A DNA stretch of 64,000 nt from Carnobacterium sp. (GCF_040274945.1 NZ_JBEMAR010000003.1:88994-152993); one strand, 5' to 3'; shown: positions 21,491 to 28,890, counted from the stretch's first letter. A program made the numbers and translations. Notes: generated by a model not told the origin, from the sequence alone.

Positions 21491-22072
21491 TTATACTTGT
21501 AACGTACCCTTTAGTTCCGCAGCTTTAGTAGCAATTAAATCCATTAACTCAGGAGACAAGGTATCGTAAGTCGGTAGTCCCAGATTATTTAATTCTTTAC
21601 GAACATCCGCCATTTTAGAAGCTGGTGTACCTGTTTCGATTACAGATGAAACAAAGGCTGCGAATTTTGGTGCAGACCATCCTTTTTCTTCTGATAATTC
21701 TGTATGAATAAAGTCTAATCCGTAAAATGCATGATTTTTATTTTCTATACGACCATACATATGTGCACCACAATCTCTACAATAATGTCTTTGGATTGCC
21801 GCTGTTTCATCAACTACTTCTAACTTATCTTCATTGTTAATGACTTCAACTGTTTCACGAGAAACTACAGCTACTAAAGAAAACCTAGCGTCTTCTGGTT
21901 TCCAACACTGAGAACAGCCACATGCGTGGTTGTGTAGCGTTTGTGAGCTTACTTTGACCTCTACTTTATTCGATTCACAAAGACACGTTAATGTGCCCCC
22001 ACCGAATCCTTCTACTTCAGGGTAATCTTGGATTCCGTTATCTAATCTTGGGTGTAATTTAATGTTTGTCAT
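21491..22072 (-). CDS. gfa: Glutathione-dependent formaldehyde-activating enzyme
   Basis: [65 protein letters not shown]. Start at ATG 22072 with AAGGAG. Confidence 0.92.
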
Positions 22073-22312
22073 ATACTTCACTCCTTGGATTTATTGTTTT
22101 TGATTCAGCGATATGAAACTCTAACTGTTCTTTTATAAATGATGAAATCATCTAATAGTTCTAAACATGTCCACTTGATATCCAAACAATCAAAAGATGA
22201 TTCTTTTATTTCACGACTGCAGTTAGCTTAATCGTCTCCAATTCCTTTTTTTAGAATGGATTTGCATCGCTGATTGTTTTTCTAAAAAATTATTTGCGAA
22301 AAAAAACAATTC

Positions 22313-23437
<1,125 letters not shown>

Positions 23438-23588: not shown

Positions 23589-23633
23589 AGAAAGAAGATA
23601 ATCTCGATTCATTAGCGAGATCATCTTCTTTCT
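23589..23633. terminator. Terminator downstream of the PHP gene
   Basis: AGAAAGAAGATAATCTCG ... CGAGATCATCTTCTTTCT. Confidence 0.7.
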
Positions 23634-23650
23634 GTTTTATAAATTATAGA

Positions 23651-24439
23651 TTAAAGTTTAACTTTAGCAAGGTTGATATCGTAACGCCCGCCTACTTTTT
23701 GTAATTCTTTTAACGCTTTTTTCAGTAGCGTTGCTGCTTCGACTTTCTGACTGATGCCCTTATCGATTTCGACAGTATAAGCTTTTTTTTCAATTTCATA
23801 TTTCAGTGCATCAATGGTATTCACGTCTTTGTCAAAGTCATTATACAACACACCATATTGGAGATACTGATGTGTATCACTTCCCGCTAAAACCGGCTTA
23901 TTGTACTTAGCAGCTATGGCTTCAATATTTTTTCTATTACTCAATCCCATCAATCCTGTATCTTTTCCATTCAAGTCAAAGAAGTCATAACAGTCGATCA
24001 AATCATCCGATAATGCTAGATTGTTGCATCCACTTCGGTAAACATGCGCAGCTCCAAAAAGCACATTGTATTCTTTGATGATAGAAAACAAGTCTTCTGC
24101 GGGTAGAAATGCTTCATCTGGTTCTGGTAAAACGCGACGACGGATCTCCAAAATATCTTCAAATCGTCCGATAACTAAATTATGGCCACCTTCTTGAATA
24201 TCTACTTCTAATCCAGGAAATACACGTACACCTTCTACTAAATAAGTGTCTCCATCTTTTGGGTAGTGCTCTGTAATGTAGCCATAAATTTTTTCGAATT
24301 CCTGAGTGTTGAAATGCTCCGTCAGACAGAGTGCATCCAAACCTCTTGCTTTTGCCTCTTTAAATAACTGTACAGTATATTCTTCTGAGAATGGTAAGTT
24401 TTTAGCTAATTTACCATGTGTGTGAAAATCTATTTTCAA
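23651..24439 (-). CDS. PHP-domain phosphoesterase
   Basis: DFHTHG, LCLTEH, AAH and GSDTH metal-ligand motifs. Confidence 0.85.
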   Translation of the reverse strand: MKIDFHTHGKLAKNLPFSEEYTVQLFKEAKARGLDALCLTEHFNTQEFEKIYGYITEHYPKDGDTYLVEGVRVFPGLEVDIQEGGHNLVIGRFEDILEIRRRVLPEPDEAFLPAEDLFSIIKEYNVLFGAAHVYRSGCNNLALSDDLIDCYDFFDLNGKDTGLMGLSNRKNIEAIAAKYNKPVLAGSDTHQYLQYGVLYNDFDKDVNTIDALKYEIEKKAYTVEIDKGISQKVEAATLLKKALKELQKVGGRYDINLAKVKL

Positions 24440-24454
24440 AATAAGTTCCTCCGT

Positions 24455-25291
24455 TTAAACTAATTTAGGTGCGATAAGCGCTGCCGTAACGACTAAAGCA
24501 AAATACAAAACTGAACTTGCTAAAAATGCAAGATCTTTTGAAGTGAAGTTTAATGTTTTCAATTTCATTTTTTTCACCCTAGGATCGGTCATTGAATTAC
24601 GATAGCCTTTTATTTCCAGTGCTTCTACTGTTGTTCGGCTTCGTTTAGCCATATTCAGCATCAAGGGATAGAATGAACGCATGACGATTTTTAACTGATA
24701 CATAATAAAACGGATCTTACCCATAAAGCCATTTGAATCGGGTTGTACGCCTCTCAATCTATAGGAAAGATTGACACTCTGGAATTCTTCCATAATGATC
24801 GGTAAGATTCGGTAACCATAAGAAATACTGAATGCGAACTGATCAGGTAAACCAATCGATAAGAGTCCATTAGATAATTTATCAGGATCCATCCCCGCAA
24901 AGGTCGTAATCGAAGCTAATGAGACAACGCCGATTTTCAATGTCAGCTGGAGCACTGGAATCAGTGCAGACCAATCACCACCGAATAATAAGATGAATAG
25001 AAACAGAAAACCTGTTTCTGACAAAAGTCCGATACAAAAGACGAATAAAATAAGGGGCACTGTTCGTGCTAACTTAGTCGTGATGGCTACAAAAATAAAT
25101 AAGCCGGCTAATACCCAATAATTTGTAATGAACCAGGGAATGATCCCAAAGAGAACATACCAGATGAATAATGTACGTGGATCTAGTGAGGCAACAAAAG
25201 TTTCGTCATTTCCGTAAGCATTTTTCAACACTTGATTTTTCAAGGACGTGATCGTAAATTTATCTAAGAAATTTTCATTCACTTTCATCAT
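24455..25291 (-). CDS. ECF transporter T component
   Basis: LDPRT, conserved ARG-type motifs (SYRLRG, ALEIKGY), CbiQ-like hydrophobic pattern. Confidence 0.85.
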   Translation of the reverse strand: MMKVNENFLDKFTITSLKNQVLKNAYGNDETFVASLDPRTLFIWYVLFGIIPWFITNYWVLAGLFIFVAITTKLARTVPLILFVFCIGLLSETGFLFLFILLFGGDWSALIPVLQLTLKIGVVSLASITTFAGMDPDKLSNGLLSIGLPDQFAFSISYGYRILPIIMEEFQSVNLSYRLRGVQPDSNGFMGKIRFIMYQLKIVMRSFYPLMLNMAKRSRTTVEALEIKGYRNSMTDPRVKKMKLKTLNFTSKDLAFLASSVLYFALVVTAALIAPKLV

Positions 25292-27000
25292 GACAAGACC
25301 CCTTCTTTCTTCTGTAACTGATCCACAAATTGATCAACTGTATAGATAGAAGCATCCGAATTCATCGATTTTGCCAATTTAAAGATTTCTGGCGGATCGA
25401 TTCCAGCTAACTGAAGTAATGTTTCATCATGAAAAATCTCTTCTCTTGTACCGTTTCCAATAACTTTCCCTTCATGAAGAACAACAATTCGATTCGCCCA
25501 CTCTGCTACCAACTGCATATCATGTGTGGCAATAATAGTCGTTTCCAAGCTATCTTTCAGATCATCAAGCGTTTTCGTAATACTTTTTCTTGTTGCAATA
25601 TCCAGATTGGCTGTGGGTTCATCCAATAGCATGATTTGCGGATTCAACGCTACCCCGATCGCTAGAGAAGCTCTGCGCATCTGTCCTCCACTAAGTAGCC
25701 GTCCATCTCTTTCAGCTAGCTCTACTAAATCAAACTGGCGTAACAGAGCCTCTGTTCGTTCTTTATAGTCTTTTATATTTCTTGCTTTCATTGAAAAAGC
25801 AATATCGCGTTTGATGCTGTCATCGATAAACATATTCTCAGGATTCTGATAAACATAACTGATTGTATCTGAGATCTGCTCCGGTTTTAACCGGATAATG
25901 TCTTTACCATCCAACTCTATTTCTCCGCTGTCTGGTTTGATTAGTCCTGTCAGTAACTTAAGCAGCGTTGATTTACCTGCACCGTTATTTCCAATCAGTG
26001 CTACTCTCTCTCCCTTGTTGATTGTAAGATTCAATGAATCAAAGATGGGTTTTTTATCTCCTTTGATCATATCGTAGCTGAGCGAAACGTCTTTTAAATA
26101 AATCATGGCATCATCCTGTTTTGAACGAACACTAGGCATGGTTTTTTCAACAGTCTGTAGTGCATACTCTTTGAAATAATCTTTCCCTTGATCGTGATTG
26201 ATTGGCAGGGTTAAAGCATTCCTTTCAGAAATTTGAGCTAACTGATGTGCTGCTTGAGTAATTTGTGGTGGAAAGATCGAGCCTTCCATCAATTCTTCTA
26301 CTCTAACGAGCGCTTCTTTTACAGGTAATTTCCACTGAATTCGATTGTCTTTCATGAAAATAACCGAATCGCAATATTTACCAATAAAGTCTGTATGGTG
26401 TTCAATCACAACAATCGTCTTGCCTAATTCTTTATTAAATCGCTTCAGTACATCATACGTTTTGAGTGCATGATAAGGATCCAGTTGCGCTATCGGTTCA
26501 TCCAAAATCAAGATATCTGGTCTTAAAGCTGTCATTCCTGCTAACGCCAGTAAATGCTTCTGACCACCAGATAGCTGCCAGATATACTCATCCGATTGTT
26601 CTTCTAACCCCGTTAACTCTAAGGCTTCCATCCCACGTTCAACATAGTCTTCCAAACCATTGTTCAGACATGAAAAGGCAGCATCATCCAACACTTTTGG
26701 ACGAATCAACTGGTTTTCAAAATCTTGATAGACATAGCCAATCGTATGTGCCAAGTCTGAAACGGTTGAATCCACAGTTTCCACTCCATTTATTTTAAGG
26801 GATCCGCTCACATCGCCATCGATAAAATGTGGAATCACTCCATTCAACAATTTGCATAGAGTTGATTTACCCGTTCCATTGTTTCCAACGATAGCTACGA
26901 ACTCTCCATCTTCAATCGTTAAATTGATCTCTTCCAGTTGATAGTTTTCCTGACTTGGATAATTAAAGTAGAGATTTTTGATCTCAATCAAATTACTCAC
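25288..27000 (-). CDS. ECF transporter fused double ATPase
   Basis: Two Walker A motifs (GNNGTGKST, GNNGAGKST), two LSGGQ signatures, DEP motifs. Confidence 0.92.
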   Translation of the reverse strand: MSNLIEIKNLYFNYPSQENYQLEEINLTIEDGEFVAIVGNNGTGKSTLCKLLNGVIPHFIDGDVSGSLKINGVETVDSTVSDLAHTIGYVYQDFENQLIRPKVLDDAAFSCLNNGLEDYVERGMEALELTGLEEQSDEYIWQLSGGQKHLLALAGMTALRPDILILDEPIAQLDPYHALKTYDVLKRFNKELGKTIVVIEHHTDFIGKYCDSVIFMKDNRIQWKLPVKEALVRVEELMEGSIFPPQITQAAHQLAQISERNALTLPINHDQGKDYFKEYALQTVEKTMPSVRSKQDDAMIYLKDVSLSYDMIKGDKKPIFDSLNLTINKGERVALIGNNGAGKSTLLKLLTGLIKPDSGEIELDGKDIIRLKPEQISDTISYVYQNPENMFIDDSIKRDIAFSMKARNIKDYKERTEALLRQFDLVELAERDGRLLSGGQMRRASLAIGVALNPQIMLLDEPTANLDIATRKSITKTLDDLKDSLETTIIATHDMQLVAEWANRIVVLHEGKVIGNGTREEIFHDETLLQLAGIDPPEIFKLAKSMNSDASIYTVDQFVDQLQKKEGVLS

Positions 27001-27847
27001 CTACACCAATCGTTTTATTTTTTCTGATAACAAGTATGATGCCTACGATCAAAACTAACGTAAGGACAATGCCTGCAAAGACTGCTTCAGGACTTTCTGC
27101 CCAACTTGCTTCCCAGTCAATAAAGTTAATCCCTGTTTCCGCCATGAATTCAGTTATTACGGCTATTAGGAATAAACCTACTGCCATCAAGATGGCTTTA
27201 ACGTTTAGTACTGCTCCAAAGGATGGTCTATTTTTAGGAGTTCTTGGACGCATCCCTAATAACGGTTCAATTTTTTTATATAGTCTTGGGACTAAAAATA
27301 ACGTTGGGAGCACACAGAATAAGATTCCAGAGAATAGCAAATCATTGACTATGGCAAATCCTTCAGTGAAAAACACTGATTCAGGTAACCCTTGAACAGC
27401 TTCAAAGTCTTCAACCGCAAACACCACTTTTGAAATGTCGACTAACCCCCCTAAAAATTGGTGAATGAAGATGCCCGTAAACGAAGCGATGGCAACTTGG
27501 ACTTTATTAAGAGGATCATTGACCATCATTCCAGCGATATAGATGCCTAAAGAGAAAAGAACAAATTTTTCAACTTCTCCGACACCACCGAATTGGCCTA
27601 ACATAATTTCACTAAAAATCACTTCTCCAGTAGCTGCACCTAATGCAGCTGATAGTGGATCAAATAAAATTGCTAACGTTAAGGGAATAAAAGCAAAATA
27701 CTCAACTGATAATTCAACGATACCCAATTGAACAGATGGAATCAATTCTGTGAACAATGTAGCCAGACCGTATAAAGACATAGATAAGACGAAAATCATC
27801 ATCTTTTGTGCTTGCGTAAGTTCCGTTCGTTTTCCTTTTAAATGCAA
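26993..27847 (-). CDS. Probable ECF S component (long, 284 aa)
   Basis: All-hydrophobic protein that is the first gene of the ECF operon; N-terminal IP..LAILFDP..AALGAA.GE pattern resembles S components. Confidence 0.7.
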   Translation of the reverse strand: MHLKGKRTELTQAQKMMIFVLSMSLYGLATLFTELIPSVQLGIVELSVEYFAFIPLTLAILFDPLSAALGAATGEVIFSEIMLGQFGGVGEVEKFVLFSLGIYIAGMMVNDPLNKVQVAIASFTGIFIHQFLGGLVDISKVVFAVEDFEAVQGLPESVFFTEGFAIVNDLLFSGILFCVLPTLFLVPRLYKKIEPLLGMRPRTPKNRPSFGAVLNVKAILMAVGLFLIAVITEFMAETGINFIDWEASWAESPEAVFAGIVLTLVLIVGIILVIRKNKTIGVGE

Positions 27848-28050
27848 AGTAATTCCTCCAATAGTTTATGTTTTATTTAGTACACGGTTATCTTACCGAA
27901 CGAATGTAAATTACCCGCAAATTTAAAGTAAAAATGTAGTATTTTTTTTCATTAAAATAAGTAAAAGAAAATTAATTTTCATTAACGAACTCATTAAACC
28001 AGAAAAATTATGCTACAATAAATGATAAGTAACCCTTAAAGGAGGAAAAC

Positions 28051-28890
28051 ATGGCTACACATACCTTTACCATTCCTAAGGATTCCCTGACCAAAAGTCA
28101 GCTTGTAATATTGGAATATATCTACTCGAATATTGAAACGATTCCTTTTTTAACCATAACAGAGATCTCTAATGAACTAGGAATCAGCGATGCAACCATT
28201 ACTCGTTTTTCAAAAAAAGTTGGTTATCCGTCATTTAAAGAAATGAAAATGGCCATTTTATCTGACATACAAGTCTCTCCTGCTAAAAAACTCCAAAATA
28301 GTTTTGAAGAAGGTGACTTGAATGCTAAAGACAATTTACTCATTTTCAAAGAAATTCAGCATTTGATAGAAACCGTCTCTCATCTGGATATGCAAACATT
28401 GAATCAGGCGATTCACTTACTGTTAAAAGCTAAAAAAATCTATGTATTTGCCAAAGGTGCTGCTAAAAGTCCTGCTGACTTACTCGTTTTCCGTTTGAAT
28501 CGCTTTGACTTGGATATCCAGTTCGTTACTGCAAGTGGTTCAGAACTTTTTGAGAAATTAAATAACCTTTCGCAAGAAGATGCCATTGTTCTTTTTGGGT
28601 TCGGTTCTGTCCCTAGAGAAATCAAACTGGTAGAAGACTATGGAAAAAAAATCAAAGTTCCTATTCTGTCTTTTGCAGACAGGCATTATAACTCTACTTC
28701 TGAAGAAGGCATTACAACTTTTTTTGTAGCACGAGGCATACCCGATGACTACCATTCCATGACGTCGGTCGTAGCCCTGATTGATACGTTGATCGTTGAA
28801 ATGGCGAAACAAATGCCTGAAGAAAGAAAACAACATCTTGAAAATTTATTTTCACTTAAAGAGTCCTACAAGCATAATGTTCCAAGATAA
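28051..28890 (+). CDS. MurR/RpiR-family regulator (HTH + SIS)
   Basis: LTKSQ..I..YI, SDATITRFSKKVGY..FKEMK, followed by a SIS domain. Confidence 0.92.
   Translation: MATHTFTIPKDSLTKSQLVILEYIYSNIETIPFLTITEISNELGISDATITRFSKKVGYPSFKEMKMAILSDIQVSPAKKLQNSFEEGDLNAKDNLLIFKEIQHLIETVSHLDMQTLNQAIHLLLKAKKIYVFAKGAAKSPADLLVFRLNRFDLDIQFVTASGSELFEKLNNLSQEDAIVLFGFGSVPREIKLVEDYGKKIKVPILSFADRHYNSTSEEGITTFFVARGIPDDYHSMTSVVALIDTLIVEMAKQMPEERKQHLENLFSLKESYKHNVPR

Follow-up and report, generated by a model that had tools for sequence, protein, structure and literature searches.

The 64,000-nucleotide stretch of a Carnobacterium sp. genome analyzed here (GCF_040274945.1, NZ_JBEMAR010000003.1:88994-152993; hereafter the window) carries, at positions 23651-28890, a dedicated energy-coupling factor (ECF) importer that is encoded together with a PHP-domain metalloenzyme and a regulator of the RpiR/MurR family. 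The S component of this importer is a member of DUF8171 (PF26509), a new S-component family for which no substrate has been proposed in any literature found; a literature search likewise recovered no publication on the ECF-PHP-RpiR system as a whole. We suggest – with a probability of about 0.5 – that DUF8171 systems import a phosphorylated compound and dephosphorylate it in the cytoplasm. It is a little more tentatively that we propose them as the first organophosphate ECF transporters, for an inositol phosphate, an unusual sugar or polyol phosphate, or a nucleotide, served by a PHP, IMPase-family or HAD phosphatase depending on the lineage.

In the scheme that we favor, the ECF importer would take up a phosphorylated carbohydrate-like small molecule – a sugar phosphate, a polyol or inositol phosphate, or a nucleoside phosphate – which probably enters already phosphorylated, as no kinase is conserved in the operon. 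The cytoplasmic PHP enzyme would then remove the phosphate from the cargo, assisted in some species by an IMPase-family or HAD phosphatase, and the divergently transcribed RpiR regulator would bind the palindrome (T)GAAAAT-N2-ATTTTC(A) upstream of the S gene and probably respond to the cargo or its product. As to the cargo itself, our first preference is a polyol or inositol phosphate or an unusual sugar phosphate, our second a nucleotide or bisphosphonucleotide, and our third an amino-alkyl phosphate or phosphonate.

If true, an ECF transporter handling a phosphorylated carbohydrate-like compound would widen the picture of these systems as importers of vitamins and trace metals, and would represent an unrecognized uptake route for phosphorylated nutrients in many gut Clostridia, some lactic acid bacteria, and haloarchaea. 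The pattern described below – one S family, three interchangeable phosphatase superfamilies, two interchangeable importers, and a putative conserved operator – is a testable one, and the list of candidate substrates is short.

Organization and conservation of the ECF-PHP-RpiR operon

The operon is transcribed from the minus strand in the order S-AA'-T-PHP, with the open reading frames and the overlapping or near-abutting junctions that the sequence-only reading had described. The S gene (26993-27847; 284 aa), which begins with TTG behind a GGAGG ribosome-binding site, overlaps by 8 nt the gene for a fused AA' energy-coupling ATPase (25288-27000; 570 aa), which in turn overlaps the T gene (24455-25291; 278 aa) by the sequence ATGA; a further 15 nt, including a second GGAGG ribosome-binding site, separate the T gene from that of the PHP/PHP_C enzyme (23651-24439; 262 aa). 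The rpiR gene (28051-28890; 279 aa) lies on the plus strand, divergent from S.

The energy-coupling proteins are readily recognized. The ATPase contains two ABC_tran domains, with Walker A, LSGGQ, and Walker B motifs in each half, and it matches both ECF_ATPase_1 (TIGR04520; 387 bits, cut-off 315) and ECF_ATPase_2 (TIGR04521; 374 bits, cut-off 330), each over two stretches; the fusion is of the kind found in YkoD. The T component is a divergent member of the CbiQ/EcfT family (Pfam CbiQ; 39.8 bits, cut-off 25) in which R180, G181, K216, R217, and R219 are invariant among 19 relatives, and the motifs YRLRG and KRSRT...E.KG are kept, the second of them ending in K-G and not in R-G. Because an S-component fold, a CbiQ-type T component, and two EcfA-type ATPase domains are encoded together without a binding protein, the operon is a dedicated (group I) ECF importer. 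The genome, that of a Carnobacterium of the inhibens/viridans group, has two T genes, the operon's own and a canonical EcfT elsewhere on the contig, and this is therefore a second, dedicated ECF module.

A scan of one genome per species identified at least 399 relatives of the S component, the majority in gut Clostridia (Roseburia, Anaerostipes, Blautia, Faecalibacterium, Gemmiger, and Oscillospiraceae) and others in Erysipelotrichaceae, Collinsella tanakaei, and a metagenome-assembled genome (MAG) of an Enterococcus sp.; Turicibacter and Jeotgalibaca are also among the sources of related proteins. The family reaches approximately 400 or more species-representative genomes, and its hosts include both abundant gut genera (Faecalibacterium, Roseburia, Anaerostipes, Blautia, Gemmiger, Turicibacter, and Collinsella) and food bacteria (Carnobacterium, Marinilactibacillus, and Jeotgalibaca). 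In the Lactobacillales the distribution is patchy, with 13 positive genomes among 301, and four of eight within the genus of the window.

The association of the importer with PHP and RpiR, which had been proposed from the window by itself, recurs across the family: T and PHP genes follow S in all 71 loci whose sequence extends 5.2 kb or more past S, and an RpiR homologue is present in 42 of the 44 loci with enough flank on both sides, although these loci are kin, drawn mostly from the best 80 matches, and the counts are descriptive and overstate independence. Two clusters of open reading frames (c5 and c7) that run antisense at the tblastn positions of PHP and of S/ATPase were treated as antisense artefacts. 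Across approximately 90 loci there is no conserved kinase, isomerase, aldolase, or dehydrogenase, and no conserved transaminase or other gene of phosphonate catabolism. Neither the window locus nor nine loci without RpiR showed a riboswitch or a metal regulator. A Turicibacter bilis-type contig (L001:3985-4086) has a purine riboswitch and terminator in front of a 262-aa S1-domain open reading frame, about 1.9 kb ahead of the ECF operon. This element was considered as a control of the operon and rejected, as it serves the S1-domain reading frame and a terminator-like hairpin separates it from S.

Exchange of phosphatases and importers between lineages

The PHP protein matches both Pfam PHP (28.5 bits, cut-off 26.4) and PHP_C (28.6 bits, cut-off 21.3), and its metal ligands H6, H8, E41/H42, E78, H86, H132, D188, and H190 are invariant among 21 relatives, such that the enzyme is presumably active. 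The catalytic motif starts at residue 4, which places the protein in the cytoplasm, and there is no signal peptide. It had been read as hydrolyzing phosphoesters; the PHP fold and the complete set of metal ligands agree with this, but hydrolysis itself is a superfamily expectation, the nearest solved relative, PsfC, being non-hydrolytic, and we refer to the protein as a putative phosphoesterase.

The strongest indication of the nature of the cargo comes from the enzymes that accompany or replace PHP in other lineages. An IMPase-family gene directly follows PHP in 18 bacterial loci, and in three haloarchaeal loci from two assemblies (L158 and L159 in GCA_003610195.1, L160 in GCA_004944975.1) S-AA'-T genes have adjacent IMPase-family genes and no PHP, the haloarchaeal IMPase being approximately 37% identical to the bacterial operon-linked one. 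In a high-GC lineage, represented by contigs that stop before the position of PHP, a LacI-type regulator and a double HAD phosphatase (542-568 aa) are encoded directly upstream of S, and at one metagenomic locus a Cof-type HAD gene starts 12 nt after PHP. PHP, IMPase, and HAD enzymes have unrelated folds, and the activity common to them is the hydrolysis of phosphomonoesters in small molecules. The lineage-dependent choice among them supports a phosphate-ester cargo, short of proving it.

A second exchange involves the importer. In the Paenibacillaceae, all eight loci examined (L127 and L147-L153, in genomes G486, G705, G709, G714, G731, G758, G789, and G800) contain an operon for an SBP_bac_1 binding protein, a 612-aa fused double permease, a TOBE ATPase, a PHP protein, and an RpiR regulator; 14 of 121 genomes have the binding protein. 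The PHP protein of this sister operon scores 1.9e-74 against the profile of the window PHP, compared with 1e-80 for ECF-linked members and 1e-23 to 1e-29 for other PHP paralogues, and its RpiR is 28% identical to that of the window. The importer itself resembles, weakly and far under the cut-offs, systems for 2-aminoethylphosphonate (PhnS/PhnU2), for sugar phosphates (AfuA), and for iron (FbpA); the match to 4r72, for example, has an E-value of 6e-4, and that to PhnS reaches 33.8 bits where the cut-off is 310. The probable operator motif of the window (see below) was tried as an operator of the sister operon and is absent upstream of it, a different conserved element, ATAGTTTTTTAC.AAAA, being present instead.

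By these comparisons PHP and RpiR travel as a pair behind two unrelated importers, which argues that PHP acts on the cargo and is not an accessory of the ECF transporter. A PHP protein that serves instead as a structural or regulatory partner of the transporter, for example by docking on a conserved cytoplasmic loop of S, would account for its presence beside S in 71 of 71 loci, for its conserved C-terminal helix, and for the near-invariance of the loop LYGKIEPLLGM.PR, which follows the last core helix of S. We regard such a role as very improbable, in that the same PHP clade is found behind a non-ECF ATP-binding cassette (ABC) importer, unrelated phosphatases replace it in other lineages, and its catalytic metal ligands are all invariant. 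A complex prediction for S, T, and PHP, made without controls, scored 0.00 and speaks neither for nor against binding. Outgroup PHP paralogues were also considered as a functional lead and set aside; their neighbors are mixed (IclR with a metallo-beta-lactamase, TetR with a zinc phospholipase C, NadA/NadB, a glycosyltransferase, and PstS), and nothing clear emerges.

A phosphorylated cargo had been put forward from the window sequence, and that general proposal gains independent support from the haloarchaeal use of IMPase in place of PHP, from the HAD phosphatases beside S, and from the Paenibacillaceae sister system.

DUF8171 as a predicted new family of ECF S components

The S component of the window matches no Pfam or NCBIfam family at E-values up to 0.01 in the local copies of these libraries, and has no PDB sequence match at E-values up to 10; its 120 top relatives all carry PF26509 (DUF8171). 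An exhaustive phmmer search with S against 1.8 billion representatives returned only 194 clusters (at 50% identity), many of them fragments, with 34-83% identity, and no weaker tail of matches was found in this library, which is without names. Language-model neighbors (QueT, YkoE-like, and ThiT) are all weak (scores below 0.8) and serve as leads only.

Structural comparison is more informative. In a search with an AlphaFold model of S (pLDDT 82.7), the 17 best matches are all solved ECF S components with Z scores of 9-14.8 – the best being 4hzu_S (Z 14.8), with FolT, RibU, ThiT, BioY, and PanT also among them – and the next match falls to Z 6.2; Foldseek results are concordant. The matches align residues 8-198 of the model with entire targets of 164-189 aa, and the remainder, residues ~200-284, contains a Lys/Arg-rich loop and two further predicted membrane helices joined by an acidic WEA.WAES loop. 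The model thus predicts a complete S-component fold in residues 8-198 followed by two extra C-terminal membrane helices, which accounts for the earlier remark that S is about 100 aa longer than is typical. Judged by sequence, the protein belongs to none of the known vitamin or metal S families (BioY, RibU, ThiT, FolT, QueT, CbiM, and others); membership in such a family, together with binding of its substrate, had been raised as the finding that would count against an unusual cargo, and the sequence-family searches gave no match of this kind.

Across related loci S is the best conserved of the four proteins compared, with a median identity to the window protein of 65%, relative to 56% for T, 47% for PHP, and 33% for RpiR. 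The positions of S that are invariant or nearly so include E75, D137, and E162 as well as the loop GQFGG.GE.E and the motif GKIEPLLG..PR. The positive-inside rule, taken with the alignment to the S fold, leads us to infer that the Gly-rich loop and several of the invariant Glu residues face outward.

Several DUF8171 proteins are named 'cell division protein FtsQ' in public records, and others 'hypothetical'. Because the structural matches are to the ECF S-component fold, the FtsQ label looks like a propagated misannotation.

The RpiR regulator and its probable operator

The regulator matches HTH_6 with 51.2 bits (cut-off 28.3). In the intergenic region between S and rpiR is a perfect 14-bp palindrome, GAAAATTAATTTTC (27967-27980), which was read directly from the sequence and which the sequence-only reading had singled out. 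Considered simply as a palindrome it does not go beyond chance expectation, the window containing seven perfect 14-bp palindromes where an estimate from composition predicts about six. Its conservation across phyla is what sets it apart. In the 310 nt upstream of S, GAAAATNNATTTTC is found with no more than one mismatch in 35 of 86 loci and with no more than two in 65 of 86, against 1.4% and 5.4% of control windows, respectively, and its position is steady at approximately 110-170 nt upstream of S in loci from several phyla. The palindrome is kept in three genomes of the same genus in which the flanking bases vary. It is present whether rpiR is divergent, convergent, or co-directional, but the two loci without RpiR show no more than the background frequency. 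From these patterns we consider it very probable that the conserved GAAAAT-N2-ATTTTC palindrome upstream of S is the RpiR operator.

There are five exact copies of GAAAATNNATTTTC in the 2.63-Mb genome, three of which are in this locus, within 4.4 kb. A wider RpiR regulon was considered and rejected, as the other two exact sites are inside unrelated coding sequences and one-mismatch sites are scattered. The second copy in the locus (24424-24437) spans the first codons of PHP (M-K-I-D-F-H) and recurs at the PHP start in 36 loci. The synonymous codons there are biased, the choice falling on GAT in 32 of 33 cases and on TTT in 31, relative to 62% and 68%, respectively, elsewhere in the same genes. 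This copy may be an auxiliary operator, although it could also be a coding coincidence arising from 5'-end codon bias and shared ancestry. The third copy, GAAAATTTATTTTC (28840-28853), is within the 3' end of rpiR and is coding sequence, so little can be read from the fact that related genomes of the genus keep it.

The stretch that leads from the palindrome to the start of S contains, at 27870-27950 (minus sense), repeated TTTTTAC and TTTACA elements that are common to Lactobacillales loci (also L026, L102, L104-L108, and L005). They may correspond to a promoter -35 region or to a second binding site; a simple promoter scan found no site in the spacer between the palindrome and S.

Evidence on the nature of the cargo

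Several observations weigh against import followed by dephosphorylation, and we consider them together. To import a phosphate ester merely to dephosphorylate it would be unusual, and the kinship of the loci noted above also tempers the counts on which the association rests. The outward-facing loops of S, with topology inferred as described, have many invariant Glu and Asp residues and no Lys or Arg, and loops this acidic would be a better fit for a ligand that is cationic or rich in hydroxyls than for a phosphate by itself, unless the phosphate is bound by a metal ion or by the GQFGG loop, which is Gly-rich and invariant.

The relatives of PHP point the same way. The best NCBIfam match of the protein is to the CehA/McbA metallohydrolase domain, far under the cut-off. 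A structural model (pLDDT 92.5) has its closest fold match in PsfC (7RTY; E 5.6e-16, TM 0.75/0.81, 20% identity), followed by endonuclease Q, TM0559, the PolC PHP domain, and RNase AM. PsfC acts in fosfomycin biosynthesis, where it uses dinuclear non-haem iron to convert 2-phosphonomethylmalate to 3-oxo-4-phosphonobutanoate (bioRxiv 10.64898/2026.01.15.699783). The nearest solved relative of PHP is thus not a hydrolase, and those that follow are a DNA endonuclease and proteins without an assigned function. Many of the hosts are gut Clostridia and strict anaerobes, which argues against a PsfC-like, oxygen-dependent chemistry for the PHP of these operons.

The effector-binding domain of the regulator is a further difficulty. 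RpiR scores 24.4 bits against SIS, under the cut-off of 25, and in the alignment with NanR (4ivn) the residues GVGASS read AKGAAK and SSSGSTKE read GFGSVPRE; the orthologues keep a Ser in the first SIS loop, not in the second, and have in their place conserved YRGE..EYHSM and GGSE motifs. The SIS domain therefore appears non-canonical, neither of the two Ser/Thr phosphate loops being conserved, and its effector need not be an ordinary sugar phosphate. The earlier premise that SIS domains of RpiR regulators sense a sugar phosphate is accordingly shaky for this protein.

These same features make room for a cargo other than a phosphate ester – the vitamin-like precursor of a cofactor, a cationic compound, or a chelated metal – with PHP performing some other metal-dependent chemistry, such as the ester or carbamate hydrolysis of CehA/McbA, and with the IMPase and HAD enzymes acting further downstream or being unrelated. 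Vitamins and metals are the classical cargo of ECF transporters, and the acidic, invariant outward loops of S, the non-phosphatase relatives of PHP, the non-canonical SIS domain, and the weak resemblance of the sister binding protein to the iron-binding FbpA would all fit. We nevertheless judge this explanation, the leading alternative, unlikely, at perhaps half the weight given to a phosphorylated cargo, since the substitution of IMPase for PHP in haloarchaea and the presence of HAD beside S are hard to explain unless phosphatase activity matters, and in addition no riboswitch or metal regulator is present at the loci examined and S matches no known vitamin or metal S family.

A phosphonate or amino-alkyl phosphorus compound – 2-aminoethylphosphonate, phosphoethanolamine, or phosphocholine – would reconcile some of these observations, the acidic pocket of S holding the amine and PHP working on the phosphorus end. 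PsfC, the best structural match of PHP, binds a phosphonate, and the best (albeit weak) matches of the sister importer are a 2-aminoethylphosphonate-binding protein and the PhnU2 permease; the acidic extracellular loops of S are also consistent with an amine. This is nonetheless a distinctly unlikely alternative: these family matches are all far under the cut-offs, no phosphonate-catabolism gene is conserved across the approximately 90 loci, and the RpiR and LacI regulators suggest carbohydrate-like effectors. IMPase-family enzymes, moreover, are not known to cleave carbon-phosphorus bonds.

Among phosphorylated cargoes, which we continue to prefer, inositol phosphate is one candidate only, given the rarity of phytase-like domains and the absence of IolB. 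No IolB was found in the five Carnobacterium genomes searched, and these hosts therefore have no classical inositol catabolism, a further point on the negative side. Phytase-like domains occur in two of approximately 94 loci. In one Lachnospiraceae MAG (L046:14268-16085) the first 174 residues of RpiR are fused to a Phytase-like (PF13449) domain, a join that is possibly an assembly chimera; at the other locus (L093:7018-9308) a 763-aa protein with lamin-tail and Phytase-like domains is encoded after the IMPase gene.

Relationship to known systems

As a group I ECF transporter the system resembles BioMNY, CbiMNQO/NikMNQO, and YkoEDC, in all of which S, A, and T components are encoded in one operon without an extracytoplasmic binding protein. 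It differs from them in that its S component falls in a separate and compact family (PF26509), has two added membrane helices, and is unusually conserved, and in that DUF8171 operons always include a cytoplasmic phosphatase-type enzyme and nearly always RpiR, not a riboswitch or metal regulator.

For the proposed working of the system the closest analogue is UgpBAEC of Escherichia coli, an ATP-driven organophosphate importer encoded with the cytoplasmic phosphodiesterase UgpQ, which processes the cargo. No homology is implied. Ugp is an ABC importer of type I that depends on a binding protein and is controlled by Pho, and UgpQ is of the GDPD family. AfuABC (AfuA, 4R72-4R75) and PhnS/PhnU are comparable with the Paenibacillaceae sister operon, which has a fused double permease and matches them weakly; they are unlike the window system, which is an ECF module with no binding protein.

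The PHP protein shares its fold and the positions of its metal-ligand motifs with PsfC (7RTY), endonuclease Q (5ZB8, 7K30), and TM0559 (2ANU), although endonuclease Q cuts DNA, and neither it nor PsfC is encoded with a transporter. The regulator has the plan of the RpiR/MurR proteins NanR (4IVN), MurR, and HexR – HTH_6 followed by a SIS-like domain, with the gene next to an uptake operon and a palindromic site close by – but differs in that the canonical GxGxS and SxSGxT read AKGAAKS and GFGSVP, respectively.

Flanking features of the window

Just downstream of the operon (21491-23422) are glutathione-type formaldehyde genes for a class III alcohol dehydrogenase and Gfa, here in a Firmicute; their adjacency to the operon is not kept in other genera. 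These frmA-gfa genes form a separate unit, because the operon is closed by an 18-bp hairpin (23589-23633, minus strand) directly after PHP. The hairpin has a free energy of -24.4 kcal/mol (z = -5.76 relative to shuffled sequences) and no U tract, and may be either a terminator variant or an mRNA-stabilizing hairpin.

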